This document shows, piece after piece, positions 9,964 through 36,160 of a stretch of DNA of 42,704 nucleotides (its first letter is position 1; the number at the start of each line of letters is the position of its first letter). The position numbers and the translations under genes were made by a program. The DNA is from Candidatus Omnitrophota bacterium. Its GTDB lineage: Bacteria; Omnitrophota; Omnitrophia; Omnitrophales; Aquincolibacteriaceae. The DNA lies in the NCBI GenBank assembly GCA_041651495.1, contig JBAZJC010000002.1, positions 1-42,704 on the forward strand, written 5' to 3'. The notes below the pieces were generated by a model that saw nothing but the letters and a program-made list of their open reading frames with translations, made no database searches and was not told the DNA's origin.

Positions 9964-9995
9964 GAGCCCAACCCGCTATTTTCTGCGTTTGGGCC
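9964..9995 (-). terminator. Possible weak intrinsic terminator after the DUF2079 gene
   Basis: Imperfect hairpin: GCCCAA (9966..9971) pairs with TTGGGC (9989..9994). On the minus strand it is followed by the T-rich stretch GGTTTTCTTTCGTATTTT. It lies in the 118-nt gap between 10043 and 9924. Confidence 0.3.
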
Positions 9996-10042
9996 ATAAC
10001 ATACGCTGTCGCCGGCGATCATCTTGCGAGCCCAATAAGTTT

Positions 10043-11650: not shown

Positions 11651-11653
11651 TAT

Positions 11654-14164: not shown

Positions 14165-14180
14165 AGTCCGACCCGAAAAA

Positions 14181-14942: not shown

Positions 14943-15883
14943 GAATTTTGGGCTCCAAGCTTGGCCTTCAGTGCATCATACAAACGTGGAAAAAGAGCCT
15001 CACAAACGGCCTGAGTTCTCCCTTTCCAATTGTGAGGATGAAAAAAGAGATAATATCCCAAATATGGGAGCTGCCAAAACTTTTTCTGAGAATAAACATC
15101 GCAAAAATTCGCCAATTTTGCAAAATTGAACCTGCCTTTTAAAACAGCGGCCTTTTCGAAAAAGTCGATACGTTTTCGGATTTCGCCAAGGAAAACCTCA
15201 GGATCGAATAAGGACTTCCGGCCCGCACCGATAACATTCCTCTGATGCTGCCGGTACTTCACGAGTTTTTCTTTAGTAAAAAGAATCTTTCCCATCCCGC
15301 AGCTGGTCACAAAAGCAAGATGATCGTGCAAAAAAGGCACACCGCCGCGAAAGCTTAGAATCTTTTCCGCGACAGCCCGTCGAAGCATCATGGAGCATCC
15401 CGGCGTTATATTCCGGAACAGAACCCGTTCATCAAGCACCCCCCTCACAGGCTGGGTCGCGGACATCTTCCAGAATGAGCGATGGAGTCGATTCAAATTC
15501 TCATCACAAACTTCAAGATCAGAATAGACCAACAACGTTTCTTCGTTTGGCTCCAAAAGCCGCATTAAACGCTCAACCTTATCAGCACGCCAATAGTCAT
15601 CTTGGTCACAAAAACAGACGAAAGCACCCCGACAATGCCTAAGAGCCTTCAAAAAATTAGTTGTCACTCCAAGGCGTGTGTCATTGGAAAATAATCGAAT
15701 GCGCGTGTCTGATCCGGAGAAGTCACGGGCGATCTTGAATGTCTCATCCTCCGAACAGTCATCGCTGATAATAACCTCGAGATTCTTATAGGTCTGTGCC
15801 AGAACACTTCCGATCTGATCGGGAAGATAGCTCGCGCCATTGCAGGTTGCGATCACGATCGAAACAAGCGGGGCGCTGGTCAC
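14939..15883 (-). CDS. Glycosyltransferase family 2 (rhamnosyltransferase-like subgroup)
   Basis: LVSIVIATCNGASYLPDQIGSVLAQTYKNLEVIISDDCSEDET ... FVCFCDQDDYW. There is a 4-nt overlap with the wzx-like gene. Confidence 0.85.
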   Translation of the reverse strand: MTSAPLVSIVIATCNGASYLPDQIGSVLAQTYKNLEVIISDDCSEDETFKIARDFSGSDTRIRLFSNDTRLGVTTNFLKALRHCRGAFVCFCDQDDYWRADKVERLMRLLEPNEETLLVYSDLEVCDENLNRLHRSFWKMSATQPVRGVLDERVLFRNITPGCSMMLRRAVAEKILSFRGGVPFLHDHLAFVTSCGMGKILFTKEKLVKYRQHQRNVIGAGRKSLFDPEVFLGEIRKRIDFFEKAAVLKGRFNFAKLANFCDVYSQKKFWQLPYLGYYLFFHPHNWKGRTQAVCEALFPRLYDALKAKLGAQNS

Positions 15884-17367
15884 GAAGCCACCTTTTGAAA
15901 TCGTTTTGATTTAAGAAATTTTTCTTTCAGGATCGGCCACACTTCATATTTTCTATTGATGTGTATCAAAAACGGGAGGTAAACGGCCACCAAGCTAAAG
16001 ATTTGGCCGAACATTCGAGGAAGTAATGGGAGCACGCCCAGCATTCTATCCAGGGCAATAAGAACAAGAATCATAAAAACAAAATTGGCAAAAACCAAAA
16101 AATATTCCCGACACAACTCTCCCAATGTAAAGATATAACGCCCCATCAAAAGATGTAATGCCGTGAAGTTCACCATCATAACAGCCGTCATTATGATCGC
16201 TATCTCATTGATGCCAGCACCGGTCTTGATTGCAAGGAAAAGCAAAACGAAAGCGATAAAACACATACCCATCGCAATAGGAAATTGCAAAAAGTGCTTT
16301 TTACTTACAACAATGGCATTGCTATAAGTCTGCGTGAGCCCAACAAAAAACGTGCTGAGCGCTAAATATTTAAGGGCCACTATTCCCCCCTCAAATTTAG
16401 GAAGAATGAGATTCACAACAAAAGGAACCACAAACCAACCCAAACCTATCAGGATCGGCATCAGAATTGAGAAAACATGATTCGACTTTTTAAGATAACC
16501 CCGCAAATCGCGGACATTTTCGCCTTCCGCATATTTTTCCGATACATTGGGAAGCAGCACTACGCCAATTGAATTCGGAACACTGCAAATGAATCCTGCT
16601 GTCATCATTGCGATACTGTATAGACCAAGGGCTTCAAGTCCGAGATATTTTGCAATCATCATCTTATCGATCGTGAGAAGAACCGTTCCCGCGAGCGTCA
16701 GCATCATGAGAGGGAAACCGTATTGGATCAGTCCCATCAGTACTTTTGTGTTTAATGTCCAGCGAAATCGGAAATTTTCGTGATAAAGGATATAAACGAT
16801 GTTAAATACAAAACTCAGAACCATTGCCCACATAAAGCCGTACAGCCTAAAAGTTGACGAGAGAATCGCCACAAGAATGAAATTAACGACTGAGGATAGT
16901 GCCATTTGTTTCCCGGCCAACTTGAAATTCTTGTAGGCCCGGAGAAAGGAAATCAGAACATTGTTCAGCTGTTGCAAAATGACAAGCCCCGTGGCGATTA
17001 ACAATCCATAGAATAATTCTCGGGGGATCTGAGAGCGACGAATACAAGCGTAGACAAAAAGCCCGATCGAAAATAACATCGATGTTAGGAACGAAAAACT
17101 GAACATCACGTTTTTCATTTTTTCTGTTTCTTCGATCTTTCCCTGGGCCCTTTTAAAGGGAATTTCGATCGGGATAGCGTATGTGGCTCCTAGATTCACG
17201 TAATCGATATAGCTCAGAATCACTTGGACCAGGGACCAAACACCGGTCTGCAGAGGCCCAAGAAAATACCGGATGATAAGTGCTCCGGCCACGCTCACGA
17301 ATTGTGTCAGCACAAATGCGGACGAATAAATGCCGACTTGGCCCACCACTTCTTTAAATCGAGACAT
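15880..17367 (-). CDS. wzx: Wzx/MOP-superfamily polysaccharide (lipid-linked oligosaccharide) flippase
   Basis: Highly hydrophobic multi-TM ORF with a Polysacc_synt-like N-terminus (FKEVVGQVGIYSSAFVLTQFVSVAGALIIRYFLGP). ATG 17367 (MSRFKEV) is preferred. The ORF-track extension to 17484 is Arg-rich and overlaps the upstream gene by 131 nt. Confidence 0.75.
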   Translation of the reverse strand: MSRFKEVVGQVGIYSSAFVLTQFVSVAGALIIRYFLGPLQTGVWSLVQVILSYIDYVNLGATYAIPIEIPFKRAQGKIEETEKMKNVMFSFSFLTSMLFSIGLFVYACIRRSQIPRELFYGLLIATGLVILQQLNNVLISFLRAYKNFKLAGKQMALSSVVNFILVAILSSTFRLYGFMWAMVLSFVFNIVYILYHENFRFRWTLNTKVLMGLIQYGFPLMMLTLAGTVLLTIDKMMIAKYLGLEALGLYSIAMMTAGFICSVPNSIGVVLLPNVSEKYAEGENVRDLRGYLKKSNHVFSILMPILIGLGWFVVPFVVNLILPKFEGGIVALKYLALSTFFVGLTQTYSNAIVVSKKHFLQFPIAMGMCFIAFVLLFLAIKTGAGINEIAIIMTAVMMVNFTALHLLMGRYIFTLGELCREYFLVFANFVFMILVLIALDRMLGVLPLLPRMFGQIFSLVAVYLPFLIHINRKYEVWPILKEKFLKSKRFQKVAS

Positions 17368-19321
17368 GGATTTCGCCTCGAACCTTTTTCGAAATAAACT
17401 CCGTGACCCGCAAACTTGCCTGGCCACTTCGCTCGCCAAGGTAGTACACCTGTGTCGTGGATATCTTCTGCGATCTGGTTGCATACAACTTCCTATTGGG
17501 GAGTTTTTTCAAAGCCATTTCAAAACCTGCCACGTCGCGAACAACTTGACACAATCCATTTTCTTCGAGGCGCCGCACATGGCTACTATCTTGATGTTCT
17601 GGATCAAAGTAAAAAGCTGGGACACTGGCAATTCCAGCTTCAATCAAAGTTGAAGACCAGGGGCAAAGCACAATCGCATCACTTTTGGCCAAAAGAGCAA
17701 AAAAATCTTCGGAAGCTTTCGCGACACGCACACGACAGCCCGGCTTAATATCCTTCACCAATCGTTTCCACAGAGTTTCATCCTCGGAATAATGCGGCTT
17801 TACAGTTACGGTCAGGGACAAATTTCGCGAAGCCAACAAAAGGGTGCGGATCGCAAGCTCCTGAAAATACCGGTAAGCATAAATATCGCAACCGATGAAA
17901 CCAAGAATATCGGGAGAAGATGGCCAAAGGTAAGCACCGCAAAAAAGAACCCGCGTAGTGTCAGACACAGTTGGCGACGCATTCGAAATCAAACCGATCA
18001 AGCGATCATATCGAGGAATCCCGCTCACCACCACCTTCTTTGGATCCCAACCTCGCTCGACATAGGTATCTTTTTCATACAATCCTTGCACAAAGGTATA
18101 TGATTGCGAAAAACATCGCGCCGTCTCAGGGACAATGCAATCGATGGCCATATTAGCGTGAGAAATACAAAAGTTCTGGACACCTGCTTTTTTCATGAAT
18201 TCGGCAAAAAAAGCGTGCGCATTAAAATCTTCATCAAGTAAAACCCCGGATAGACCGAGCACTTTCAAGACCTGCTTATAGACCGCCTCTTCCTTCGAAA
18301 AACGTTCAAAATACTCCGTCATATTGCTAAAAATCTTCTGTTTGATGAAATTCTTGAAATCATGCGTTTCGTATTGAAAGAGACCACGACAGGCGGGATG
18401 ATCCAACGCAGCAGACAGTTCAGCAGCCGCGGTTTGCAATGGACTTTCGCATTCATCTTCCGGATCTAGCAAAAAACAGGACCGAAGAAAATACGGCAAT
18501 CCCATCTTGAGGGAAAAACAAAAGTGGTCAAAATGAAACCGGTCATCGTAAAAACATATATCACAGTTTTGTTTCTTGAGCTGAACCATGGTGGATGCTA
18601 GATGGCGAAGCGTACCAAATGCCATTATCTCGTAGCCATGACGCGGTCGCACTGTTGCACTGTAAATTTTTTCCGTAATATTCCTTAAGAATTGCTTCAA
18701 CTTCGAAAGCAACGATGACGTCTCAAAAAGCGGCTCTTTGATCTGAGAAAGCTCAAGAAGATGGATCTTTCGCCCCCTCATGGCAGCAATCTCATGTATG
18801 AAATAATTCAGCGTCGCATTGCCGGATAATTCCGGATATTTGTCACTGACCTCACCGCTAAAAACATAAAACTCATCGACTGTGTTTTTTGCAACGATGT
18901 GGCAAGCGTAAAGATAATTTTTAACTGCGGAAATAAGAATGACCGAAAACCATAAAAAGATCACAGAGGCATAGTCGTAAACTTTAAAAAGCCCCTTCTC
19001 CCTGCAAATCCGGATCCATTCCCCCGCTTCACCAATCCCCCAATTATTTATTTCCTTCCACCGATCCTTCAGTGAAAACTCATTGAGCTTCTCAAAACAG
19101 ATATTCTTTTTTTTAAGAAATTCGTAAAACCTTTCGTTGTCACAAAAGAACAGGACTTCGTCCTTTGAGAGCCTCATCTCTTCGAACTTCTCAAACTGCT
19201 TCTTATTAGATAAAACGATCGCGTTCATGAAGACACCTTGTTCCGTAGATTTCACGGCAAAACGAGAACATTTTTTTAGATTGGAATTAACGGACCGTCC
19301 AAAGGGATTGCGAGCATTCAT
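17354..19321 (-). CDS. Orphan 655-aa protein with a GT-B/TagF-like C-terminal half; candidate glycosyl- or nonulosonate transferase
   Basis: ATG 19321 forms an ATGA overlap with the upstream stop. ATG 19228 (MNAIVLSNKK) is an alternative start. I recognise no family for the N-terminal half. The C-terminal half has VVVSGIPRYDRLIG, TVTVKPHYSED and LLAKSDAIVLCPWSSTLIEAGIASVPAFYFDP. These are reminiscent of CDP-glycerol glycerophosphotransferase / capsule-synthesis GT-B enzymes. Confidence 0.45.
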   Translation of the reverse strand: MNARNPFGRSVNSNLKKCSRFAVKSTEQGVFMNAIVLSNKKQFEKFEEMRLSKDEVLFFCDNERFYEFLKKKNICFEKLNEFSLKDRWKEINNWGIGEAGEWIRICREKGLFKVYDYASVIFLWFSVILISAVKNYLYACHIVAKNTVDEFYVFSGEVSDKYPELSGNATLNYFIHEIAAMRGRKIHLLELSQIKEPLFETSSLLSKLKQFLRNITEKIYSATVRPRHGYEIMAFGTLRHLASTMVQLKKQNCDICFYDDRFHFDHFCFSLKMGLPYFLRSCFLLDPEDECESPLQTAAAELSAALDHPACRGLFQYETHDFKNFIKQKIFSNMTEYFERFSKEEAVYKQVLKVLGLSGVLLDEDFNAHAFFAEFMKKAGVQNFCISHANMAIDCIVPETARCFSQSYTFVQGLYEKDTYVERGWDPKKVVVSGIPRYDRLIGLISNASPTVSDTTRVLFCGAYLWPSSPDILGFIGCDIYAYRYFQELAIRTLLLASRNLSLTVTVKPHYSEDETLWKRLVKDIKPGCRVRVAKASEDFFALLAKSDAIVLCPWSSTLIEAGIASVPAFYFDPEHQDSSHVRRLEENGLCQVVRDVAGFEMALKKLPNRKLYATRSQKISTTQVYYLGERSGQASLRVTEFISKKVRGEIHVSI

Positions 19322-20367
19322 CCGAAGAATTTCTGATATTCGCCATTGGCGCGATTAAAATCTTCCATTTGGCCGATATCGAGCCAATATTCCCTAATAG
19401 GAAAAGCAGCCACTCTTTTCCTCTCATCAATCAATCGGTCAAATAATTGCGGCATATCATAGGGCTTATTTTGGGGGACATACTTCAAAAGTGAGGGCTC
19501 CAACACATAGATTCCGGCGTTCACAAAAAAACGATGCACAGGCTTTTCATCAATCGCCCGAATATATTGTTGATCCATCGTAATCACCCCAAAAGGAACT
19601 TGAAAATCATATTCTCTAACACACATAGTCGCCGAAACATTATTTTCGTGATGAAAATTCAACAGATGCGAAAAATTGACCTTGGTCAACAAATCTCCGT
19701 TCATAACGATGAGCGGTTCTCTGGGTTTTTGAGGTAATAGACTCAGCGCACCTGCCGTTCCCAATCGCCGGCTCTCTTTAAGGTACTTCAGTTCGACGCC
19801 CCATTTGGAACCATCCCCAAAATAGTCACGGATCATTTCATCCAAATAGTTAACTGCCAAATAGAACTTTTTAAAACCGAACCCAACAAAATTCTCCAGG
19901 ATCGTCGCCAAAATAGGCTTGTCGCCAATATGAATAAGCGGTTTAGGACGGTCATTGGTAAGCGGCTTCAAACGACTGCCAAGACCACCGGCCATTAGAA
20001 GCACCCAATTTTCTCGACTTTTTGACTGAATGAGATCATCCAATATTTCAAGCCCTACAACACTCCCTCCTGCATCCAGAACCGGGATTTGATGGATGAA
20101 ATGTTTTTCCATCCTCTTCAACAATGATTCGCCCGTTTGCCCCATCTTCGCATAGATCGGCTTTGGATTCAGCACCAGTTGAACATTGTCGTCGAGGGAA
20201 ACACCCCTTAATATCCCGCGACGGACATCTCCATCAGTGACCGTCCCCAACAGCTTTCTTCTTTTCCCGACCACGACCGCGATCTGTGCAGAACTGGCAT
20301 CAATCGTTTTCAGAACACTTTTTATAGAATCTGACGGCAAAACAAGAGTCTTCTCCCAATCTTTCAT
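19318..20367 (-). CDS. CBS-pair + sugar-phosphate nucleotidyltransferase (PtmE-like)
   Basis: The N-terminal CBS pair is AVVVGKRRKLLGTVTDGDVRRGIL ... IHQIPVLDAGGSVVGLEILDDL. It is followed by the NTP-transferase motif LLMAGGLGSRLKPLTNDRPKPLIHIG. Confidence 0.8.
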   Translation of the reverse strand: MKDWEKTLVLPSDSIKSVLKTIDASSAQIAVVVGKRRKLLGTVTDGDVRRGILRGVSLDDNVQLVLNPKPIYAKMGQTGESLLKRMEKHFIHQIPVLDAGGSVVGLEILDDLIQSKSRENWVLLMAGGLGSRLKPLTNDRPKPLIHIGDKPILATILENFVGFGFKKFYLAVNYLDEMIRDYFGDGSKWGVELKYLKESRRLGTAGALSLLPQKPREPLIVMNGDLLTKVNFSHLLNFHHENNVSATMCVREYDFQVPFGVITMDQQYIRAIDEKPVHRFFVNAGIYVLEPSLLKYVPQNKPYDMPQLFDRLIDERKRVAAFPIREYWLDIGQMEDFNRANGEYQKFFG

Positions 20368-20393
20368 CTTAGGTGCTCCTGGTTAACATGGGT

Positions 20394-21617
20394 TTATGAA
20401 ACTCGAAATTTTAGTTTCCATTCGCCATGAATTTTTTCCCATAAATGCGGCGAACGATATCTGTCAATGATGTCCCAGAATTTCTCCTTGGTAATCCCGA
20501 TATATTCCAGAAAATCCTTAAAATGCCTCTCAGGGAACTCCCCATCAAACCTGCGAACAAGAGAGACACCTTCCTCGCGGGTAATATGATTATTCCGAAT
20601 TTCGATCGAAGCGTCCTCTGTACAACGGCCCCGCCCTGTTTTAATGAACCACGTGTAATAATGAAAATCGTCTACTTTATCATCCAAACTGGCGTATTTA
20701 CTGTATGTTCCCGGCGTTCGCCCATCCGGATTAACAGAAAAACCAGTATGCTCTATCGCATAATAGAAGTTTTTCTGCGGGTCATAATTCATGTAATAGG
20801 GCATGACATGAAATTCGATCCCTGAGCTCAAAAGCCGGTCGGCTTCCGCGGGCAGATAGGGATTTAGCTCTTTCATATTAATTCCATATTGAGACAAATC
20901 CTTGATCGGCACGCCTCCCAGGAAAATCTCATCTTTTTGTTCACGTGTAAACAATTTTGGGTCCATGCAGGGGCCATCCCATTTCACATCCCCGCCAAAT
21001 CCTCTTTCTGCGTAACTATCGCCAAAAAATATCAGCTTGATCCCTTTTTCCAGCGCAATCTTGGGGGCCAAGTTATATTGCCCTATGACAAAAGGCTGAA
21101 AGGGATGCAGCAGGTTTTCAAATGCAAGTCCCGTTAATTTCCGATGGACCTTTCCATTCGGTGTAAAAAGAACGTTGTCAAAGCCCGTATGAATCCACGC
21201 CTGAAAATTTTTCCATCCAATCTCGGTATAAATATGAGGTGCCCAGGTGACCGTTAACGGATTCATTCCATATTTATATTTGAGCATATGAGCTACATAA
21301 GCACTGTCTTTGCCTCCGCTCCCGGGAACCAGGACGTCATAATACCCGTCTTTGCGACGATGCCGGTTCAGCAAATCCCTTAGTTCCCTTTCCCGTTCTT
21401 CCCAATCGATCATTTTCTTTTTTTCATAATAACGGCAAGCCAGACAAACGCCTTCGTCATCGAACAAAACGGTCCTTTTTTTCGTCGTAGGCGTATCCTT
21501 GTGCTGAACCGATCCCAACATTCTCTGGTTCGACTCAACGCATTTCTTGCAATAAACCACTTTGGGAGGCAACCCAAAATAAGCTTGGCATTCTTCTTTC
21601 GATTCTTCCGGTTTCAT
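20394..21617 (-). CDS. N-acetyl sugar amidotransferase (PP-loop ATP-pyrophosphatase; WbpG/PseA family)
   Basis: The PP-loop is VLVPGSGGKDSAYVAHML. The N-terminus has paired Cys motifs (CKKCVESNQR ... CLACRYYEKK). The gene sits directly downstream of the hisF/hisH paralogs, as in known acetamidino-sugar loci. Confidence 0.8.
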   Translation of the reverse strand: MKPEESKEECQAYFGLPPKVVYCKKCVESNQRMLGSVQHKDTPTTKKRTVLFDDEGVCLACRYYEKKKMIDWEERERELRDLLNRHRRKDGYYDVLVPGSGGKDSAYVAHMLKYKYGMNPLTVTWAPHIYTEIGWKNFQAWIHTGFDNVLFTPNGKVHRKLTGLAFENLLHPFQPFVIGQYNLAPKIALEKGIKLIFFGDSYAERGFGGDVKWDGPCMDPKLFTREQKDEIFLGGVPIKDLSQYGINMKELNPYLPAEADRLLSSGIEFHVMPYYMNYDPQKNFYYAIEHTGFSVNPDGRTPGTYSKYASLDDKVDDFHYYTWFIKTGRGRCTEDASIEIRNNHITREEGVSLVRRFDGEFPERHFKDFLEYIGITKEKFWDIIDRYRSPHLWEKIHGEWKLKFRVS

Positions 21618-21678
21618 ACATTCCTCCTGTTTTCCATAATATTAATTATGATAAACTTCCATTAAAGAGCAATCACTC

Positions 21679-22341
21679 TTATGACGCTCCACCACGCGAG
21701 ATCATTTTCGAGAGATTCTGATAAATAGCAATTCCACTTGCGCCACTCCGTTCGGGATGAAATTGAAAACCATAAACATTGTCACTCTGGATCGCTGTCG
21801 CAAAACGGAACCCGCCATATTCAGTCCGCGAAAGCACAAGCTCGTTATTTTCCGGAGCGCAATAAAAAGAATGAACAAAATACATTGAGGTACCCTGCGG
21901 GATCCCGGAAAGCAGGGTATTTCCCCATCGATCATGCTTTTCCTCAGAAAAAATCGCGTTCCAGCCAATGTGCGGAACTTTCAAATTCTGGGCAGTGCCA
22001 AACTTCTCTCTCAACGGCAGCACACTTCCCGTGATTATGTCCAACCCTTTGTGCTGTCCAAATTCATGGCTCTGGGTCATCAAAAGCTGCATTCCCAAAC
22101 AAATCCCAATAAAAGGTTTCCCTTTTTTTATTTCCTCAATAAGAACCCCCTCCAGATCGAAGGCCTTAAGATCGGCCAAAGCCTTTCCGAAAGCACCGAC
22201 TCCAGGCAATATAATCGCGCTTGCATTCTGAATATCGCGAGGAGCATTGGTTACAAGGGCCTTCATCCCACAATATTCACAAGCGTGCTTCACGCTGAAG
22301 ATATTTCCCAAACCATAATCAATAATCGCAACAGACTTCAT
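21679..22341 (-). CDS. hisH: Imidazole glycerol phosphate synthase HisH-like glutamine amidotransferase paralog
   Basis: MKSVAIIDYGLGNIFSVKHA ... ILPGVGAFG ... GICLGMQLL ... FQFHPERSG is a class-I glutaminase triad context. Confidence 0.85.
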   Translation of the reverse strand: MKSVAIIDYGLGNIFSVKHACEYCGMKALVTNAPRDIQNASAIILPGVGAFGKALADLKAFDLEGVLIEEIKKGKPFIGICLGMQLLMTQSHEFGQHKGLDIITGSVLPLREKFGTAQNLKVPHIGWNAIFSEEKHDRWGNTLLSGIPQGTSMYFVHSFYCAPENNELVLSRTEYGGFRFATAIQSDNVYGFQFHPERSGASGIAIYQNLSKMISRGGAS

Positions 22342-22350
22342 TACGTACCC

Positions 22351-23190
22351 TCATCGAGCAGAAGAAATTCCCCGATTCACAAGGAATGTTCGCAAATCTG
22401 AAAGTTCAACTGTATCAACTTTTGAATATCCTTCGCCGCTCTGGATAAAATTAACATTACCTTCAGTAAACTCATTGGCATCCTGTTTGGCAACCTTAAT
22501 GCACTGATAATGCAAAATTGAACTCATGGCAACAGCATCAGCCTTTCCATCCACGATAGCTTCAAGAACATGATCGACGGTACCCGCCCCTCCCGCGGCG
22601 ATAACCGGAATAGAAACGCTTTCGGAAACGCTCCGGATTAATTCGATGTCGTATCCCTTGCCTGTTCCTTCACGATCAACCGCCGTCAACAATATTTCTC
22701 CTGCCCCGAGCTCAGCAACTTTTTTTGCCCACGCCACAGCTTCAAGTCCTGTCGGGATACGGCCATTATCCGTAAAACACTCATAGGTTCCATCTTTGCG
22801 CTTAATAACTTCCATCGATATAACAATAGTGGAAGAACCAAATGCACGCGAAGCCTCGCAGATCAATTGTGGATCCCGGACTGCAGCCGTGTTCAGCGAC
22901 ACCTTATCAGCACCGGCGCGAAGAATTGCCTTGATATCCTGAAGCGTTCGCAGACCCCCTCCCACCGTCAACGGAATGAATATTTCCCGTGATGTTCTCT
23001 CAACAATATGGATCAGGCTATTCCGTTCATACAAACTAGCAACTGCATCAATGTAAATAAGCTCATCTGCCCCAGCTTCATAATAATAGCGGGCAAAATT
23101 CTCCGGCTTTCCAAGGACTCTCAATCCTTCAAGGTGAATCCCCTTAACAAGATTGGAACCTTTAATATCTAACCTAGGAATCAATCTCAT
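22351..23190 (-). CDS. hisF: Imidazole glycerol phosphate synthase HisF-like cyclase paralog
   Basis: MRLIPRLDIKGSNLVKGIHLEGLRVLG ... GADELIYIDAVAS ... PLTVGGGLRTLQDIKAILRAGADKVSLNTAAV ... IAAGGAG. Confidence 0.85.
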   Translation of the reverse strand: MRLIPRLDIKGSNLVKGIHLEGLRVLGKPENFARYYYEAGADELIYIDAVASLYERNSLIHIVERTSREIFIPLTVGGGLRTLQDIKAILRAGADKVSLNTAAVRDPQLICEASRAFGSSTIVISMEVIKRKDGTYECFTDNGRIPTGLEAVAWAKKVAELGAGEILLTAVDREGTGKGYDIELIRSVSESVSIPVIAAGGAGTVDHVLEAIVDGKADAVAMSSILHYQCIKVAKQDANEFTEGNVNFIQSGEGYSKVDTVELSDLRTFLVNRGISSAR

Positions 23191-23948
23191 CGACGCACAA
23201 CCGTGATCCCGCGGTTCGTTGGGCTCGGCATCTTATTCTTTAAAATTAATTCGGCCATATGAAAGTCCCACGGCGTGTCAATGTCGAGAGATCGAGAAGC
23301 GGGCATTATGTACGGGAAAGATCTGCGAGGGTATAACGTCTTTTTTTCTTTCAAAACTGAGCTGCGAATAACATAAATCGCACCGTTAGGCGCGAAGCAT
23401 GCCGCAACCGGACGGTCCTGATAATATTTTATTTTCCGGAGCATGCCCTTACCGGTTAACTGCCATACGAGTGTGGTGTTTTTTTGTATCTCAAAAACGC
23501 TTACCACCGCATCCGCATTATTTTTAATGGCAATTTCAATTGCCGCATCAATATCGTCGGCCGTCCGCAGCGGCGATGTCGGTTGCAACAATACGATATA
23601 TTCAGGAAGTCTCTTCTCATGTTCCTCGAGCCATCTGAGAACATGGATGAGAACATCCATGTGGGGAGTACCGTCTTTCGCTAAAGCTGCCGGACGCATA
23701 AAAGGAACTCCGACTCCCCACTTTCTTGCCACCGCCGCGATACGACGATCATCTGTTGAGAGAATAACGTGATCCAAAAAACGGCTTTTCAAGGCCGCTT
23801 CCGCCGTCCATGCAATCAGCGGCTTCCCCAAAAGGTTCTTGACGTTCTTCCCAGGAAGCCTTTTTGATCCGCCTCGTGCAGTAATTAAACCGAGAGTATC
23901 GAACTTCCCGGGCATCATTTTAGTTTTTTTGGAAGGAGTGAAAATCAT
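23187..23948 (-). CDS. neuA: CMP-nonulosonate synthetase (acylneuraminate cytidylyltransferase family)
   Basis: LGLITARGGSKRLPGKNVKNLLGKPLIAWT ... VLLQPTSPLR. There are ATGA overlaps on both sides. ATG 23918/23915 are alternative starts. Confidence 0.85.
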   Translation of the reverse strand: MIFTPSKKTKMMPGKFDTLGLITARGGSKRLPGKNVKNLLGKPLIAWTAEAALKSRFLDHVILSTDDRRIAAVARKWGVGVPFMRPAALAKDGTPHMDVLIHVLRWLEEHEKRLPEYIVLLQPTSPLRTADDIDAAIEIAIKNNADAVVSVFEIQKNTTLVWQLTGKGMLRKIKYYQDRPVAACFAPNGAIYVIRSSVLKEKKTLYPRRSFPYIMPASRSLDIDTPWDFHMAELILKNKMPSPTNRGITVVRR

Positions 23949-25129
23949 ATCGTCATCTTCTTTTTTATCAATTCAGATCCAAGCTCAATCATGGCTAAGG
24001 TCTCTGCGATTTTTTTGCCGGCATCACCCACCCCGTACGGATTTTCACACTTCTTACAATGAGTTCTGAAATCCTCATCAAAAAGAGCCTTACGAATAGC
24101 CATCTTGATCTCTTCGTGAACATACCCGGCATCAAGAACATTCGTTGCGCGCAAACGCCCTTGCTGCCTTGATCCGATGTTCACTGCAGGACATCCCAAA
24201 GCAGGTGTTTCTTTAATACCGCTTGATGAGTTCCCAACGCAAACGCCGAGACCTCCCCCTAAACCACAATGGTAGAGGATTCCATGGTAGTTGTACCGTC
24301 CCAGGCTGCTGAAGACCTGCACGCCTTTGATCTTTTTCAAACTCCAAGCGTTCAACGCATCAATGATCCTCTTCCCTCCGGCATCATTATTGGGATAAGT
24401 TGCAATAATCTGACAGCCTTCCTTTGCCAGAATTTCCAAGACCTCAAGCGATGGCTTAAGCTGCACCATGGCATCGTCACATTCCGTAGCCACCGAATGT
24501 TGCGTGAAAAGAATAACAGGTTTTCCAAAATCGATCCCATAGCGTTTCTCAAGTTCAGCTTTTGACGCATAATTTCCAGCCGCAATCAGATCGATTGCAG
24601 GAAATCCGACATTGAAAACTCGCCATGGCTCCTCTCCCATTGTACGTATTCGACGAGCAGCATCTTCATTGGTCGTAAAATGAAGATGAGCAAGCTTGGT
24701 CATCGCATGGCGCACAGAATCATCAAGCGCGCCTCCTTCCGTAATATCCCCGCCCTCAATATGGACCGTCGGGATCCCCATCTGAGTACCTGCAATCACG
24801 GCCGCAAAACCTTCAAAACGATCCGCATAAACCACCAGAACATCCGGTTTCAGTTCGTCCAGGACCTTACTTATATTAATCACCCCGGAACCAATGGCCT
24901 GCGCGGTTGAAAACAACGAGTCCTGCGACATTTCTATCTTGATCTCACGAGCGATCTCAAAACCGTCATTTTGTATCTCAGCCAGTGTCTTCCCGAAATC
25001 CTTATCAAGATGGGCTCCGGAGACAAGAAGAAAATATTTTAACGCGGGATGCGCTTGAATTGCTTTTAGTATCGGATATTGAAGTCCATACTCTGCCCGA
25101 TTCCCTGTAAAAACCGCTATTTTTCGCAT
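23945..25129 (-). CDS. neuC: Hydrolysing NDP-N-acetylhexosamine 2-epimerase (NeuC/LegG family)
   Basis: MRKIAVFTGNRAEYGLQYPILKAIQAHP ... VHIEGGDITEGGALDDSVRHAMTKLAHLHF ... NSSSGIKETPALGCPAVNIGSRQQGR. Confidence 0.85.
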   Translation of the reverse strand: MRKIAVFTGNRAEYGLQYPILKAIQAHPALKYFLLVSGAHLDKDFGKTLAEIQNDGFEIAREIKIEMSQDSLFSTAQAIGSGVINISKVLDELKPDVLVVYADRFEGFAAVIAGTQMGIPTVHIEGGDITEGGALDDSVRHAMTKLAHLHFTTNEDAARRIRTMGEEPWRVFNVGFPAIDLIAAGNYASKAELEKRYGIDFGKPVILFTQHSVATECDDAMVQLKPSLEVLEILAKEGCQIIATYPNNDAGGKRIIDALNAWSLKKIKGVQVFSSLGRYNYHGILYHCGLGGGLGVCVGNSSSGIKETPALGCPAVNIGSRQQGRLRATNVLDAGYVHEEIKMAIRKALFDEDFRTHCKKCENPYGVGDAGKKIAETLAMIELGSELIKKKMTI

Positions 25130-26181
25130 GAAATCGGACCTCCTTCAAAGTTAAGAACATCTTCAGGACGGATGTGGGCATGGGCCAACAAGTCTCGTAC
25201 CGCAATTTTGTGAAGCACCTTATCAAGGTCTTTTGCCAAAATCGGACCTGTGCCGGGCCTTTTAACCCATGTATTTTCGCTATTGAAAGTTTCACCTTTT
25301 CGAATAGGTTTCGTTGTCACTACCGTAGCATAGGCAAAATCGATAACGGGTTGTTCCTCAGCTAAAATAGTTTTCGCCCCTCCACGGGCTTCCCAAATGG
25401 CACGACCGCCTTTGACTAACTCACCTAGCTCCTCCGGATTAATGGAGATGGGGATATCAGGCCCCGGCCAATCTCGACTGATCGTAAAATGTTTTTCCAC
25501 CGCAGTAGCACCTAAAGCGATGGCACCTAAGCATGTATAAATGCCCAAAGAATGGTCACTTAAGCCAACCTCCAGACCAAATTTTTCTTTGAGTTTGTGA
25601 ATAGCTGCCAACCTAACTTTATTGTAAGGCGTAGGGTACATGGAAGTGCAGTGCATGAGCATCAGCGAACAGCCCTGGGCCTGAATGATCTGGACCGATC
25701 TGGTAATCGACTCCATGTCGTTCATACCCGTCGATAAGATAATAGGCTTTTGGAACTTCGCGATATGTTCGATCAGCGGATAATTGTTGCACTCACCGGA
25801 GCCAATCTTAAACCCTGCCACCTTCATTCCGTTCAAACGATCAGCCGCAGCTCGTGAAAACGGCGTACTCAAAAACAAAATACCTTTTTTTTTGCAGTAG
25901 GCTTGAACTTCGACCTCTTCCTTGGGCGTCAGTTCGCACCGTTTAATAATGTCCCAAAGCCGCTCATTCGATATTTTCCCCGGCTTCATGTCGGTCGGGA
26001 TCATCTCCTCCTCGGTAATATGGCACTGAAATTTTACGCAATCGGCTCCGTGCTCCTTAGCCGCATCCACTAATTGAATCGCTTTCTCGATACTCCCTTC
26101 ATGATTGATTCCAACTTCCATCATCACAAAAGGTGGTTGATCCAGACCAATCTTGCGTCCCCCAATTTTAAAATCAGACAT
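25117..26181 (-). CDS. neuB: Nonulosonic acid synthase (NeuB/LegI/PseI family) with C-terminal SAF domain
   Basis: PPFVMMEVGINHEGSIEKAIQLVDAAKEHGADCVKFQ ... FKIGSGECNNYPLIEHIAKFQKPIILSTGM ... GLSDHSLG ... AVEKHFT, plus a SAF-like tail (PIRKGETFNSENTWVKRPGTG). Confidence 0.88.
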   Translation of the reverse strand: MSDFKIGGRKIGLDQPPFVMMEVGINHEGSIEKAIQLVDAAKEHGADCVKFQCHITEEEMIPTDMKPGKISNERLWDIIKRCELTPKEEVEVQAYCKKKGILFLSTPFSRAAADRLNGMKVAGFKIGSGECNNYPLIEHIAKFQKPIILSTGMNDMESITRSVQIIQAQGCSLMLMHCTSMYPTPYNKVRLAAIHKLKEKFGLEVGLSDHSLGIYTCLGAIALGATAVEKHFTISRDWPGPDIPISINPEELGELVKGGRAIWEARGGAKTILAEEQPVIDFAYATVVTTKPIRKGETFNSENTWVKRPGTGPILAKDLDKVLHKIAVRDLLAHAHIRPEDVLNFEGGPISCEK

Positions 26182-26231
26182 CGCTACTCCTCCATCAAAA
26201 GTGAATGTTATTTAACTTCAGCCGAAAGAGT

Positions 26232-27086
26232 TCAAACCCACGAAGCAACCAATTCTTTTAAACCTTCCCGCAAGCTAACGCGCGCGCTCCATCCATAACA
26301 CGTCTTCATTTTGGATGGATTTAAAATAAGAGAGGAACGGATATGATCGTGATCCACACAACAAACGCCGCGTTTTTTCTGCCCCGCAATATCCAACAAT
26401 TCTCGCGCCAAATTCGCTACGCTTGTTCCAATGCCTGTTCCCAAATTAAAAATCCCATATTGACTGCGGGTCGCCAGGCAAATCAATCCACAAATTACAT
26501 CTGCAACATAAATAAAATCCCGCACAGGCATTGAGCATTTCACTTTCACCGGTCCTGACTGACCCAACTGTCTCATAACACCGGAAAGAACACTTGTTTC
26601 TGACATCCCAAGACCATAGACGTTCGCTATTCTCGCCACGGTTTGGTGTTTTCTCAAGATCACTTCTTCAACTGCATATTTGAGCCGTGCATAAGCACCG
26701 GAAACACTGAGCGCTTCGTCCTCGCGATGTGGCGCTTCGGACAAATCTCCGTAAACAGCAGCACTCGATGCAAATACCACTCGGGCAAAACGTTGAGTGC
26801 AGAGGTGTTTGGCCAGCGCTACGGCTTCCGGCAAGGCCGAATCGGTCTGGCTTTCCACTGCGAGGACATTATTATCACCCGCCAAATGCACGCAAACTGT
26901 GTCAGGGGTACCCATGACCTCGAGATAATTTTTAACACGCGTATATTCAATTCCAGGCTTTGCTCTAAAATCGCATTTTCTCCCGTACGCATGCACCGCA
27001 AACCCCTGACGCAATAGCTCAGAGCAAAGTGCGTGGCCAATAAATCCCGTAGCGCCCGTAACCGCAAAACGGATTTTGTTAGACAT
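26232..27086 (-). CDS. Short extended-SDR NAD(P)-dependent reductase/epimerase; candidate 4-ketoreductase
   Basis: 284 aa. The N-terminus is RFAVTGATGFIGHALCSELLRQGF and the catalytic Y-x3-K is YARLK. It overlaps the upstream dehydratase gene by 8 nt. Confidence 0.65.
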   Translation of the reverse strand: MSNKIRFAVTGATGFIGHALCSELLRQGFAVHAYGRKCDFRAKPGIEYTRVKNYLEVMGTPDTVCVHLAGDNNVLAVESQTDSALPEAVALAKHLCTQRFARVVFASSAAVYGDLSEAPHREDEALSVSGAYARLKYAVEEVILRKHQTVARIANVYGLGMSETSVLSGVMRQLGQSGPVKVKCSMPVRDFIYVADVICGLICLATRSQYGIFNLGTGIGTSVANLARELLDIAGQKKRGVCCVDHDHIRSSLILNPSKMKTCYGWSARVSLREGLKELVASWV

Positions 27087-28089
27087 TATAGGTGTCGATC
27101 TTATACGAAACCAAATTTTTTCTGTCCGTAAACCATTGTATTGTTTCCATCAGACCCTTTCGGAAGCCATCTTCACCGCCATAGACCGGATTCCATCCTA
27201 ATAGCTTCCTAGCTTTCGAATTGTCGGACCATAAGCGCTCCACTTCACTCTTGAGGGGGCGGATGCGTTCGGACTGCGATTTTATCTTGATCTTAAAGTT
27301 CATAAGCTCAGCGATTAATTGCGCGATATCTCCTATCGAAATCTCAAAATTGCTCCCCAAGTTGAGCACTTCCCCTGCAGATTTCGGGGTTTCCAAAGCA
27401 GCCGAATAGGCACGTGCGGTATCCTTGACAAAAGAGAGATCCCGAGTAGGGTGCAAACTCCCGAGCTTGATTGTACGTGAGCCGCTTGCGATCTGCGTAA
27501 TGATCGTGGGAATCACGGCTCTGGCAGATTGCCGCGGGCCGTAGGTATTGAAAGGCCGTATGATCGTGACGGGCGTTCCAAAAGAGCAAAAGAAAGACAT
27601 CGCAAGCTGATCGGCTCCGATCTTGCTCGCCGAATAAGGTGACTGTCCCTGTAGCGGATGATCTTCGGTAATAGGGACAAATTTTGCCGTTCCATACACT
27701 TCGCTCGTAGAAGTATGGATGACCCGCGAAAGTCCTAGCTCGCGAGCAGCCTGCAGAACATTAAGAGTGCCTTTGACGTTCGTATCAATGTAAGTATCCG
27801 GCGAATGGTAGGAATAAGGGATCCCGATCAAAGCGGCAAGGTGCATCACAGCATCACAGCCCCGCATCGCCTTTTTCACTCCGTGGGGATCACGGATATC
27901 CCCGGAAAAAACATCCAAGGTGTCTTTGACTGTTACGGGCAGCGTATCGAGCCACCCCCAGGAATTAAAGGAATTGTAAAGAACAAAGGCCCGAACATCA
28001 TAGCCTTCTTCCAAAAGATACTCTACAAGATGCGAGCCTATAAAGCCATCCGCACCCGTGACAAGAATTTTCTTTTTAAATTTCGGCAT
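27079..28089 (-). CDS. NAD-dependent NDP-HexNAc 4,6-dehydratase, LegB-like
   Basis: KKILVTGADGFIGSHLVEYLLEEGYDVRAFVLYNSFNSWGWLD matches my recollection of the LegB (Cj1319-type) N-terminus, including the YNSFN-WG-L block. The catalytic motif is YSASK. Confidence 0.7.
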   Translation of the reverse strand: MPKFKKKILVTGADGFIGSHLVEYLLEEGYDVRAFVLYNSFNSWGWLDTLPVTVKDTLDVFSGDIRDPHGVKKAMRGCDAVMHLAALIGIPYSYHSPDTYIDTNVKGTLNVLQAARELGLSRVIHTSTSEVYGTAKFVPITEDHPLQGQSPYSASKIGADQLAMSFFCSFGTPVTIIRPFNTYGPRQSARAVIPTIITQIASGSRTIKLGSLHPTRDLSFVKDTARAYSAALETPKSAGEVLNLGSNFEISIGDIAQLIAELMNFKIKIKSQSERIRPLKSEVERLWSDNSKARKLLGWNPVYGGEDGFRKGLMETIQWFTDRKNLVSYKIDTYNV

Positions 28090-28109: not shown

Positions 28110-28349
28110 TTACTCGTCAATATCCTTGTGAACCCAATGCCTGGCTTTGTTGTAGACCTTGCCAACTCGATCTTCAATCTTTGGCGATAAGACACGCAAA
28201 AGTTCTTTCCCCATGATTCGGTACTGTTTACCGATCTTCGCAGCCCTTATCATCCCACTTTTGATCATACGCAACATGGTACTCGGGGAGATCTTTAAAT
28301 ACTCCTGGGTCTCTTTGGGCGTATATAAATCGTTTTCATCAATTTTCAT
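28110..28349 (-). CDS. Small helix-turn-helix DNA-binding protein (excisionase/MerR-like HTH_17 type)
   Basis: MKIDENDLYTPKETQEYLKISPSTMLRMIKSGMIRAAKIGKQYRI. ATG 28349 is preceded by AAGGG. The ORF-track start at 28397 lies upstream of the predicted -10 box, so it is unlikely. The gene ends 20 nt upstream of the dehydratase gene. Confidence 0.75.
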   Translation of the reverse strand: MKIDENDLYTPKETQEYLKISPSTMLRMIKSGMIRAAKIGKQYRIMGKELLRVLSPKIEDRVGKVYNKARHWVHKDIDE

Positions 28350-28378
28350 ATAACCCTTCTTGTTTATATTTATAGCAT

Positions 28379-28407
28379 AATATAACTTTAACACCATTAG
28401 ATGTCAA
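28379..28407 (-). promoter_or_regulatory. Sigma70-like promoter for the HTH + nonulosonate operon
   Basis: The minus strand reads TTGACA (28407..28402), a 17-nt spacer, then TATATT (28384..28379). This lies about 30 nt upstream of ATG 28349, in the only sizeable (151-nt) AT-rich gap of the region. Confidence 0.55.
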
Positions 28408-28548: not shown

Positions 28549-30114
28549 TCATCCGTTGAGAGACGATGGGGAATGCTTCATAAACATATTGTATCGCTTA
28601 AGCCGCTTATTGCGGATGGATTCTTCTATAGAAGCAAGCCAAAGGGACAAAATTTTGAGAACCCAACCAGAAAAAATATTGTCTTTTTCGCAAAATCGAA
28701 TAACCGGGAAAAACACCCTAGGAAGACGGACATAGAATGGGAACATCTTTTGTAGTGCTTTTAATTCATTTTTTGAAATTTGAGGCATATCCAAAATAGG
28801 CTCTCCCCGCGTCCCGTGCCCCAGCTTCATATCCGAGCGGATAAATTTTTCTTTCAGAGCCATTTCTCGGATCCGGGTCCCTTTGTAGGGCACCAAAAAA
28901 CAATTACTCAAACCATCGGGCTGCGTTTTTTTATTCATCTCGATGGTGTCAAATACCATTTTTCTTGTTTCAAAAGGATTTCCGATTATGTTCGTTGAGG
29001 AGACCCGGACACCCTCAGCTTTGATGGTGGCAAAAGCTTTGACAAGCTGGTCGTTCGAGATGTATCGGTCGAACACTTTGTTTTTAATAAAATCATTTCC
29101 GCTTTCAATGCTCATACAAAATGTAACGCACCCCGCATCTCGCAACAACACAACCTTTTCACGAGATATCGTGGGAGCAGCCACTTGGATAACAAATGGC
29201 AAACCGATTCTCTCTTTATACTGATCGGTAAACTCCCGCATCTCCTCGAGAGGAAGCAAGGTAAAATCGTCATCCACAAAAAAAATCATGGTCAGATTGT
29301 GTTTTTTCTTTAAGAACTCCATTTCCTGCATAACTCGCTCAATACTCTTCCGGCGAATATAGGCCCCTTTACCTTGATACAAATTTTGAAGAACATGGTT
29401 ATTACAATACGTACACCTTCGAGGACAACCCCTCGTAAATTCCACCATGGCCATCCGATAGACCACACCATCTATCGGACGGTAAAAATGCTTTTCACTG
29501 AATTCGTCAAAATCCGGAATGGGTATCTCGTTCAGATCCTTCAAAGGCCTGACTTCATTTTTAATAATCTGGCCATCTCGTTTGATCCACATATTCTTTA
29601 TTCCGCTAATATCCTCCTCTTTCTCGCTTTTTGTAATAAATTCAAGAAGGCTGTCCTCTCCTTCGCCAATGTTAATCACATCGACAAAAGGATGCGCAAT
29701 GTACTCTTCAGGGGACATCGTGACCGCAATCCCTCCAAAAATAAACGGCATTTTAGGATATGCTTTTCGAATCCCCGCGGCCAAGAACTGACTGAAATCA
29801 GCACAATCTTCTGTCATAACGGAAAAGGCGATTAAATCGGGGTTGAAACCCTTTATCACTCGAGTGCAATCCGCGAGAACGTCTTGAACCGAAGCCGCCT
29901 GGTACGTAACTCCATACTGATTCAAATCGGCAAATCTAACTTGATGCGTCTTTGTGCGGATATCGTCATCGTTTTCGGAAAACAGCTTATAAAAAGAGGT
30001 GTCAAACACTTTCACTTCATGTCCGTTTTTTTTCAAAATTGAAACTAAAATAGAGATTCCTGGAGGAATCCTGGTATAGCCCATGTTATTCGGATAAACA
30101 AACAAAACTCTCAT
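28549..30114 (-). CDS. B12-binding (class B) radical SAM enzyme
   Basis: The N-terminal cobalamin-binding-type Rossmann segment is MRVLFVYPNNMGYTRIPPGISILVSILKKNGHEVKVFD. The radical-SAM cluster motif is VEFTRGCPRRCTYCNNH (C-x3-C-x2-C). ATG 30114 is preferred over the ORF-track TTG 30126, which abuts the AAGGAG Shine-Dalgarno. Confidence 0.8.
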   Translation of the reverse strand: MRVLFVYPNNMGYTRIPPGISILVSILKKNGHEVKVFDTSFYKLFSENDDDIRTKTHQVRFADLNQYGVTYQAASVQDVLADCTRVIKGFNPDLIAFSVMTEDCADFSQFLAAGIRKAYPKMPFIFGGIAVTMSPEEYIAHPFVDVINIGEGEDSLLEFITKSEKEEDISGIKNMWIKRDGQIIKNEVRPLKDLNEIPIPDFDEFSEKHFYRPIDGVVYRMAMVEFTRGCPRRCTYCNNHVLQNLYQGKGAYIRRKSIERVMQEMEFLKKKHNLTMIFFVDDDFTLLPLEEMREFTDQYKERIGLPFVIQVAAPTISREKVVLLRDAGCVTFCMSIESGNDFIKNKVFDRYISNDQLVKAFATIKAEGVRVSSTNIIGNPFETRKMVFDTIEMNKKTQPDGLSNCFLVPYKGTRIREMALKEKFIRSDMKLGHGTRGEPILDMPQISKNELKALQKMFPFYVRLPRVFFPVIRFCEKDNIFSGWVLKILSLWLASIEESIRNKRLKRYNMFMKHSPSSLNG

Positions 30115-30167
30115 GATAAAGTACAACTCCTTTTTAAAATGTTCGGCTCTATTGTAGCATTAAACAC

Positions 30168-32033: not shown

Positions 32034-32036
32034 TTT

Positions 32037-34373: not shown

Positions 34374-34397
34374 CGGATTGCCCGAGGCTCAAGACAA

Positions 34398-36154: not shown

Positions 36155-36160
36155 GAGACG

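Follow-up and report, generated by a model that had tools for sequence, protein, structure and literature searches.

An Omnitrophota nonulosonate cassette with a predicted reductase in place of transamination and N-acetylation

Nonulosonic acids are now grouped into neuraminic (Neu), legionaminic (Leg) and pseudaminic (Pse) acids plus a few stereoisomers, and predicting the sugar type from genes relies on the corresponding cassettes. In Campylobacter jejuni, the pathway to cytidine monophosphate (CMP)-legionaminic acid consists of PtmE, LegB, LegC, LegH, LegG, LegI and LegF (Schoenhofen et al. 2009). The seven-gene Leg cassette, as defined for the family model TIGR04180, comprises NeuA, NeuB, NeuC and NeuD homologues together with an aminotransferase, a nucleotidyltransferase and a dehydratase. 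Here a cassette of nine genes was analyzed in 42,704 nucleotides of DNA from a Candidatus Omnitrophota bacterium (contig JBAZJC010000002.1; this whole stretch is called the window), in which a short-chain dehydrogenase/reductase (SDR) of an unnamed family accompanies enzymes of Leg and Neu type. Taken together, the sequence comparisons make it moderately probable that the operon encodes a guanosine diphosphate (GDP)-dependent nonulosonate pathway without transamination, the inferred steps of which would end in a 5-acetamidino-3,5,9-trideoxy sugar retaining the 7-hydroxyl group. An earlier note on this DNA, made from the sequence alone, had mentioned that a sugar of this kind is described chemically in Fusobacterium nucleatum, and the literature confirms the structure: fusaminic acid (Fus5Am) from the lipopolysaccharide of strain ATCC 25586 is 5-acetimidoylamino-3,5,9-trideoxy-L-glycero-L-gluco-non-2-ulosonic acid (Vinogradov et al. 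2017). A full-text literature search, which covered few subscription journals, returned no natural 9-deoxy-Neu5Ac, no pathway to a 3,5,9-trideoxy nonulosonate and no gene set for fusaminic acid; its yield was limited to the F. nucleatum structural work and synthetic compounds. The earlier note, too, was aware of no defined gene set for such a sugar.

The cassette consists of nine consecutive genes on the minus strand, running from 28089 to 19318, with neighbors that overlap or are separated by no more than 61 nt:

27079..28089, minus strand: LegB-type NAD-dependent GDP-N-acetylglucosamine (GlcNAc) 4,6-dehydratase, 336 aa (TIGR04180, 517.6 bits, cutoff 475)
26232..27086, minus strand: 284-aa extended SDR (only generic PF01370, PF16363 and PF04321 matches; motifs GATGFIG and YARLK)
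25117..26181, minus strand: NeuB-family nonulosonate synthase (PF03102, 268 bits, plus SAF domain; TIGR03569, 365.9 bits, below the cutoff of 399.65)
23945..25129, minus strand: NeuC/LegG-type hydrolyzing nucleoside diphosphate (NDP)-N-acetylhexosamine (HexNAc) 2-epimerase (TIGR03568, 392.6 bits, cutoff 235.9)
23187..23948, minus strand: CMP-nonulosonate synthetase of NeuA/LegF type (PF02348, 88 bits; TIGR03584, 160.7 bits, below cutoff)
22351..23190, minus strand: HisF/WbuZ-type cyclase-like amidotransferase subunit (PF00977, 211 bits)
21679..22341, minus strand: HisH/WbuY-type glutaminase subunit (TIGR01855, 202.5 bits, cutoff 105.4)
20394..21617, minus strand: WbuX-family PP-loop N-acetyl sugar amidotransferase, predicted to convert acetamido to acetamidino (TIGR03573, 328.4 bits, cutoff 203.2)
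19318..20367, minus strand: PtmE-like CBS-pair nucleotidyltransferase (CBS-NT; PF00571 and PF00483, 135.8 bits)

All nine enzyme genes had been named in the earlier note, and the list of open reading frames (ORFs), Pfam and NCBIfam placed each of them where it had been described; the motifs quoted there, YNSFNSWGWLD (LegB residues 38–48), GATGFIG and YARLK, were likewise recovered. The SDR gene and legB overlap by 8 nt. Because the genes overlap or are closely spaced, a single transcription unit fits, and the layout is compatible with one tightly packed operon. LegB has orthologues in eight related cassettes with 50–89% identity. The HisF-like subunit scored just under the cutoffs of both TIGR03572 (WbuZ, 269 bits, cutoff 299.7) and TIGR00735 (277 bits), the HisH-like subunit has the Cys-His-Glu catalytic triad (Cys81 in GICLG, and HPE) and WbuX carries its PP-loop, SGGKDS, at residue 100. 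The NeuA-type protein matched the CMP-Neu5Ac synthetase 6IFD of the PDB with 133 bits; its longest-ORF start is probably too far upstream, giving an 18-residue N-terminal extension relative to the homologue in a related locus, L002. The PtmE-like CBS-NT is predicted, by likeness to its namesake, to be a glucosamine (GlcN)-1-phosphate guanylyltransferase.

Neither a DegT aminotransferase nor a hexapeptide acetyltransferase, the two enzyme families that the earlier note had not recognized in any ORF, is encoded in the 42.7-kb window, to which this result applies. Pfam found no DegT/DnrJ/EryC1 (PF01041) domain and no Hexapep or left-handed β-helix (LbH) acetyltransferase domain in the 35 main ORFs tiling the window. 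Three DegT probes from related loci, used in a six-frame tblastn search of the window, gave noise only (best E about 1), and the same three probes, as positive controls, matched the DegT genes of the control loci at 1e-36 to 1e-78. In addition, a regular-expression scan of the six frames of the window detected no left-handed β-helix hexapeptide runs outside membrane proteins.

The gene neighborhoods of the SDR were compared in 19 independent loci from different lineages, the window included (individual loci are given below by L or P numbers). The SDR gene adjoined NeuB and/or NeuC in 18 of them, the usual order being NeuB-SDR-NeuC-CBS-NT with 4-nt overlaps and that of the Omnitrophota loci LegB-SDR-NeuB-NeuC. 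The CBS-NT lay inside the cassette in most related loci and, in most of those, directly after NeuC. A 4,6-dehydratase was seen in 15 loci: as a LegB orthologue (TIGR04180 score of 411–518 bits, or 89% identity to the window LegB) in the window, L002, L004, L007, L086, L087, L088, L098, L099 and L174; in L176 and the P0018 locus as a LegB-like dehydratase, an assignment made from Pfam domains alone; as an unrelated PF02719 dehydratase directly upstream of NeuB in L093 and L095; and as a generic SDR-type dehydratase candidate in L175. No dehydratase was visible in L173 or in L006, L094 and L096, the last three having incomplete flanking sequence. No DegT gene was present inside the core cassette of any of the 19 loci, LegC and LegH were absent from the core in every one, and 14 loci had no DegT gene within 10 kb. 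The smallest set, in L176, comprised six genes (dehydratase, NeuB, SDR, NeuC, CBS-NT and NeuA). In L175 a dehydratase and the SDR occurred with a methyltransferase and a carbamoyltransferase and no nonulosonate genes in the available sequence, a pairing that agrees with a dehydratase/4-reductase couple. The cassette, with its predicted reductase in place of transamination and acetylation, is recurrent and not a one-off.

Tailoring genes varied between the cassettes, with WbuX/HisH/HisF in six, a deacetylase plus a formyltransferase in three and a carbamoyltransferase in two. The polysaccharide deacetylase and formyltransferase genes stand beside the SDR cassette in L007 (15157–16940), L086 (16656–18493) and L088 (12995–16229), which suggests that in these loci the same sugar carries an N-formyl group in place of N-acetyl or acetamidino. 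A gene for a 568-aa carbamoyltransferase directly follows that of the SDR in L173 (10001–14802) and L175 (696–5328), and L173 also carries carbamoyl-phosphate synthase genes; these gene sets point to O-carbamoylated 6-deoxy sugars. L093 (7727–16974) encodes the PF02719 dehydratase, a NeuB of canonical type (group B, see below), the SDR, NeuC, CBS-NT, NeuA, a methyltransferase and a Maf flagellin glycosyltransferase, and since the Maf gene comes after the cassette the SDR route appears also to feed flagellin glycosylation.

The SDR itself belongs to a distinct, unnamed family, with Pfam matches to generic extended-SDR families only and no NCBIfam model near its cutoff. A word-indexed homologue search gave 19 clusters followed by a steep fall in score. 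When a profile built from these 19 sequences was run exhaustively against 1.84 billion representative proteins, 150 full-length proteins scored above 267 bits and 3423 reached E≤1e-30. The notion of a rare family of 19 clusters was rejected on this result as an artefact of word-index sensitivity. The members looked up were nearly all metagenomic; a scan of GTDB genomes with a single peptide pattern, which says little on distribution, found at least two clear members, both in metagenome-assembled genomes of Alphaproteobacteria.

Residues S107, S108, Y132 and K136 are invariant in the family, with S107, Y132 and K136 forming the Ser-Tyr-Lys triad, and Arg36 right after β2 is near-invariant, no acidic residue being found at the end of this strand. 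In SDRs a basic rather than an acidic residue after β2 indicates NADP(H) rather than tightly bound NAD+ as coenzyme, and the enzyme is predicted to be of NADP(H) type because Arg36 follows β2 and no acidic residue occurs there. The motif SSAAVYG has no D-E pair, and the acid/base residues of 4,6-dehydratases (TDE-type) are absent. The triad, the lack of a dehydratase acid/base pair and the NADP(H)-type residue are features of extended-SDR 4-reductases, and matches to PF04321 and PF16363 give the C-terminal domain as one of NDP-sugar-binding type. Two other activities were considered and rejected: that the SDR is itself the dehydratase, because the acid/base pair is missing and a separate dehydratase is present, and that it is a GMER-type 3,5-epimerase/4-reductase, because there is no Cys two residues past the catalytic Ser and no His partner. 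The AlphaFold2 model (mean predicted local distance difference test score, pLDDT, 91.6) has a generic extended-SDR fold, for which a Foldseek search of the PDB gave TunA, GalE, UDP-GlcNAc 4-epimerase, Rmd and GMD as equivalent matches (query TM-score, TMq, 0.78–0.86); identity to any PDB entry is at most 26%. From its gene context, the SDR is predicted to be an NADPH-dependent GDP-4-keto-6-deoxy-GlcNAc 4-reductase.

The NeuC proteins of all SDR cassettes form one clade with 58–65% identity. The best PDB match of the window NeuC is LegG 5XVS, at 248 bits. The clade shares 39% identity with LegG of A. baumannii and 27–32% with the NeuC of clusters that have NeuABC only, and this separation argues against NeuCBA simply making Neu5Ac from UDP-GlcNAc. 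The signal from NeuC is cleaner than that from NeuB. The window NeuB scored 352.8 bits against NeuB of N. meningitidis, 188 against SpsE of B. subtilis and 156 against a pseudaminate synthase. An alignment and a neighbor-joining tree set apart the NeuBs that come from LegB-linked SDR cassettes (group A) as a separate clade, whose members share 61–88% identity with the window NeuB, 45–53% with Neu5Ac synthases (N. meningitidis, B. cereus BpsE and Alistipes) and 35–40% with the sampled DegT-associated synthases. The label “legionaminic-type” that the earlier note had given to the cassette holds for LegB, CBS-NT and NeuC, which are Leg-like, and does not hold for NeuB, which is Neu-like.

Asn74 of NeuB hydrogen-bonds the C6 hydroxyl of N-acetylmannosamine (ManNAc) and is described as a conserved residue of Neu5Ac synthases that other synthases lack (PMC11339185), and a study of Vibrionaceae assigned C4–C6 specificity to positions 70–85 (PMC7371886). 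This residue (N. meningitidis numbering) is replaced by Lys in the window NeuB and is K, E, A or G in eight aligned members of the clade. In the β2-α2 loop, group A NeuBs have also lost two residues at one place and gained one at another, and N184 is changed to Ser in the clade of the window. Residues E25, K53, Q55, T110, K129, S132, E134, S154, Y186, S213, H215, H236, D247, F288 and R314 are kept; the catalytic, phosphoenolpyruvate (PEP) and metal ligands as well as Arg314 of the antifreeze protein (AFP)-like domain are all conserved in the window NeuB. Such a pattern would be expected for a ManNAc-like substrate that has the 4-hydroxyl and lacks the 6-hydroxyl. It is supportive rather than decisive, because the NeuBs of a second set of cassettes (group B) are canonical at these positions, and for the same reason the loss of Asn74 was rejected as a universal marker of the pathway.

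The likeness of the window NeuB to true Neu5Ac synthases, in its score with N. meningitidis NeuB and in the tree, would also suit two independent modules, with CBS-NT, LegB and SDR making a GDP-6-deoxy-HexNAc donor of D-N-acetylquinovosamine (QuiNAc) or D-N-acetylfucosamine (FucNAc) type, NeuCBA making CMP-Neu5Ac from UDP-GlcNAc and the amidotransferase modifying one of the two products to Neu5Am or to the acetamidino sugars QuiNAm/FucNAm. Amidination of a Neu-type sugar is made plausible by an Alistipes plasmid with NeuA-NeuB-NeuC-WbuX and no dehydratase, and the dehydratase and SDR of L175 have no NeuB or NeuC nearby. Such a division of labor is nonetheless unlikely, given that in most loci the SDR gene is flanked by those of NeuB and NeuC, which it overlaps by 4 nt, and shares a cassette with the CBS-NT, that the NeuC clade, only 27–32% identical to the NeuABC-only type, is restricted to SDR cassettes, and that the C6-hydroxyl ligand Asn74 is lost in the window NeuB. 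To our knowledge, the GDP-HexNAc route has so far been known only as a feed for nonulosonate synthesis (in C. jejuni), which also counts against two modules. The plasmid cluster just mentioned (L089, 11313–15319, plasmid p2BBH45 of Alistipes indistinctus, no HisH/HisF nearby) suggests in its own right that 5-acetamidino neuraminic acid is encoded on a plasmid of human gut Bacteroidota.

In the transaminase-free pathway that we propose, the PtmE-like CBS-NT would supply GDP-GlcN and thus GDP-GlcNAc, which LegB would convert to GDP-2-acetamido-2,6-dideoxy-D-xylo-hexos-4-ulose. The SDR would use NADPH to reduce C4 of this intermediate, giving a GDP-6-deoxy-HexNAc with the configuration of QuiNAc or FucNAc, and the NeuC/LegG-type enzyme would release GDP and invert C2, giving 6-deoxy-ManNAc or 6-deoxy-N-acetyltalosamine (6-deoxy-TalNAc). 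The specialized NeuB could then condense this sugar with PEP to a 5-acetamido-3,5,9-trideoxy-non-2-ulosonic acid (of 9-deoxy-Neu5Ac type, with the 7-hydroxyl kept). The WbuX/HisH/HisF glutamine amidotransferase would convert the N5 acetamido group to acetamidino, NeuA would form the CMP derivative, and a 655-aa protein, a Wzx flippase and glycosyltransferases encoded nearby would place the sugar in a surface glycan. The site of amidination is assigned to N5 because the predicted sugar bears a single N-acetyl group, and amidination probably comes after condensation, since Arg314, which binds the N-acetyl carbonyl, is conserved in NeuB. The predicted product, C11H20N2O7 (292.127 Da), matches mono-N-acetyl Leg or Pse in elemental formula; if correctly predicted, it is isobaric with them and could not be told apart by accurate-mass surveys alone.

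Several observations weigh against this pathway. The specificity for GDP rather than UDP is assumed from homology, and the 4-reductase role of the SDR family is a prediction. The fold search ranked reductases and 4-epimerases alike (TunA, GalE and Rmd being equal), and the best PDB sequence matches of the SDR are 4-epimerases. A DegT gene was found within 10 kb in five of the 19 loci, outside the core and beside other sugar modules; the more distant group B cassettes (L093–L096 and L099) retain NeuB Asn74; and LegC and LegH could be encoded elsewhere in the genome, beyond the window.

The last of these points leads to a canonical 5,7-diamino Leg-type acid, for which LegC and LegH would lie elsewhere or be shared with a bacillosamine-type pathway and the SDR would have another role, for example a redox epimerization leading to a Leg stereoisomer. 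LegB, CBS-NT and a LegG-like NeuC are hallmark Leg genes, the view is limited to 42.7 kb of the genome, legH of C. jejuni is itself unlinked from the leg cluster (SugarBase preprint), and the best PDB sequence matches of the SDR are epimerases. This outcome is rated similarly unlikely to that of two modules: LegC and LegH are missing from all sampled cores and most loci are free of DegT within 10 kb, the NeuB is closer to Neu5Ac synthases (45–53% identity) than to the sampled DegT-associated ones (35–40%), and the acidic residue with which GalE-type epimerases typically bind NAD+ is missing from the SDR. An SDR acting at another stage or by another chemistry, as a GDP-HexNAc 4-epimerase or on the free hexose, the nonulosonate or its CMP derivative with, for example, a 7-keto or 7-epi product, would be in keeping with a fold search that does not discriminate and with the canonical NeuB pocket of group B. 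We judge it very unlikely. Either a reductase or an aminotransferase must act on the 4-keto intermediate ahead of aldol condensation, and minimal cassettes (the window and L176) offer no candidate but the SDR. The C-terminal domain of the SDR is of NDP-sugar-binding type, and its consistent partner is a 4,6-dehydratase, which can belong to one or the other of two unrelated families.

The central inference of the earlier note, drawn from a single locus, was that a reductase stands in for the aminotransferase and acetyltransferase and leads to an N5-amidinated 7-hydroxy-9-deoxy nonulosonate. It gains support from these comparisons, because the SDR is fixed in NeuB/NeuC/CBS-NT cassettes across the 19 loci with no core DegT; because NeuB is nearest to Neu5Ac synthases, which use 4-hydroxyl substrates, and not to Leg or Pse synthases, yet has lost Asn74; and because NeuC has its own clade and the SDR has the Ser-Tyr-Lys triad and an NADP(H)-type basic residue after β2, without dehydratase or GMER-epimerase residues. 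If true, a cassette that skips amination would add a class of 9-deoxy, 7-hydroxy sialic-acid analogues and supply a missing enzyme, a GDP-HexNAc 4-reductase. Trideoxy nonulosonates of this kind, for which Fusobacterium is the only chemical precedent, would have a first candidate gene set, and annotation rules would follow for a family whose representative clusters number up to about 3,400 (E≤1e-30). Such sugars are of relevance to host mimicry, Siglec recognition, interactions with phages and predators, the chemoenzymatic synthesis of sialic-acid analogues and the interpretation of mass-spectrometric surveys. The chances appear even that a widespread GDP-fed, transaminase-free branch gives tailored 9-deoxy-7-hydroxy sialic-acid analogues, amidinated, N-formylated, carbamoylated or methylated, on the envelopes or flagellins of many uncultured lineages, and that mass-spectrometric mis-assignments may exist as a result.

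The operon is flanked by the following features:

28494-28481: terminator-like hairpin, 3′ of the gene upstream of the operon
28379..28407, minus strand: sigma-70-like promoter match at the head of the operon (TTGACA-17-TATATT, 11/12 to consensus; a consensus match only)
28110..28397, minus strand: small HTH_17 (excisionase/MerR-type) DNA-binding protein, preceding legB (PF12728, 48 bits)
17354..19321, minus strand: 655-aa protein of unknown family, overlapping ptmE by 4 nt
15880..17484, minus strand: Wzx-type (multidrug/oligosaccharidyl-lipid/polysaccharide, MOP) flippase, downstream of the cassette (PF13440 and PF01943)

The promoter match is the best of its sigma-70-like kind across 14–30.5 kb. 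The HTH_17 protein, the true start of which is probably at Met17, is kept in the same position in L002/L003 with 74% identity and is a candidate regulator of the operon. The 655-aa protein showed only weak matches (TIGR04396, “surface carbohydrate biosynthesis protein”, 25 bits); its homologue in L002, with 41% identity, matched PF04464 (TagF-like) at 26.5 bits against a cutoff of 22.1, and on these resemblances it may, speculatively, be a candidate CMP-nonulosonate transferase of a new type. The Wzx flippase is kept in L002 with 77% identity; its longest-ORF start, which creates a 131-nt overlap with the preceding gene, is probably too far upstream.

Omnitrophota are nano-sized, possibly host-dependent bacteria, and here the genes for the predicted sugar sit in a very large surface-glycan island that encloses the cassette on both sides (714–17484 and 28549–42675 of the window). 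All main ORFs of the window are on the minus strand, with the sole exception of a glycosyltransferase gene (37042–37767). The island encodes two DUF2079, two PMT_2 and one YfhO-like membrane protein, six GT2 and one GT4 glycosyltransferases, several methyltransferases, a GalE-like epimerase (34398–35393) and three large proteins without a family match (4503–6203, 30168–32033 and 32037–34373). Directly upstream of the operon lies a gene for a B12-binding radical SAM enzyme (28549–30126), with weak best matches to C- or P-methyltransferases and HpnJ, which may methylate a glycan or lipid; GT2 and PMT_2 genes occupy its place in L002/L003. Genes for a three-subunit 2-oxoacid:ferredoxin oxidoreductase (37784–40133) have a GC content of about 0.55 compared with 0.42–0.48 in the glycan island, a step suggesting that island and core genome are of different composition. 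Subunits of this oxidoreductase fall into 90%-identity clusters in which the named members are proteins from metagenome-assembled genomes of Candidatus Omnitrophota. An archaeal (Methanoperedens) origin, considered in view of the split 2-oxoacid oxidoreductase, an AglZ-like match and a paper on nonulosonic acids in that archaeon, was rejected on this clustering.

Compared with known systems, the cassette shares CBS-NT, LegB, a LegG-like 2-epimerase, a NeuB-family synthase and a CMP-synthetase with the C. jejuni Leg pathway and, as in the route to Leg5Am7Ac, an optional WbuX-type amidotransferase for the acetamidino group. It differs from the seven-gene Leg cassette in that two defining members, the LegC aminotransferase and the NeuD/LegH acetyltransferase, are missing from the window, and from the C. 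jejuni pathway in that the 284-aa SDR adjoins LegB and the synthase is nearer to the Neu5Ac than to the Leg type; the predicted product would bear a 7-hydroxyl and not a 7-acetamido group. With the Neu5Ac pathway (N. meningitidis, E. coli K1 and the Bps proteins of B. cereus) it has in common the logic of 2-epimerization, PEP condensation and CMP activation, and its NeuB, like Neu5Ac synthases, keeps Gln55, Tyr186, Asp247, Arg314 and the metal and PEP ligands. Unlike in that pathway, a dehydratase, a reductase and a predicted GDP-forming nucleotidyltransferase are added upstream, NeuB is without Asn74 and NeuC is only distantly related to the NeuABC type.

The SDR resembles the NDP-4-keto-6-deoxyhexose 4-reductases (Rmd, RmlD and UDP-QuiNAc synthases of WbpV/WreQ type) in fold, triad, short length and NADP(H)-type motif, and in having a gene that is paired with one for a 4,6-dehydratase, with Rmd 2PK3 aligning at a TMq of 0.86. 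It has no specific sequence relationship to them, however, and its predicted substrate is a GDP-HexNAc, for which we know of no 4-reductase. The amidotransferase parallels WbuX/WbuY/WbuZ (FucNAm of E. coli O145), PseA and PtmG in combining a PP-loop enzyme with HisH- and HisF-like partners, catalytic motifs intact; its genes lie inside the nonulosonate cluster, and its target, unlike those of these systems, would carry one N-acetyl group, which forces the site to N5. With fusaminic acid, known as a chemical structure, the predicted product shares its constitution (trideoxy, 7-hydroxyl, 5-acetamidino), a link that is constitutional only. Fusaminic acid probably arises by an inverting PseB-type route, in view of its L-glycero-L-gluco configuration and of the 6-deoxy-L-N-acetylaltrosamine (6-deoxy-L-AltNAc) in the same O-antigen, whereas the retaining LegB and 2-epimerizing NeuC of the cassette predict a D-series isomer, so that its sugar is more likely of the 9-deoxy-Neu5Am type and stereochemically unlike fusaminic acid.

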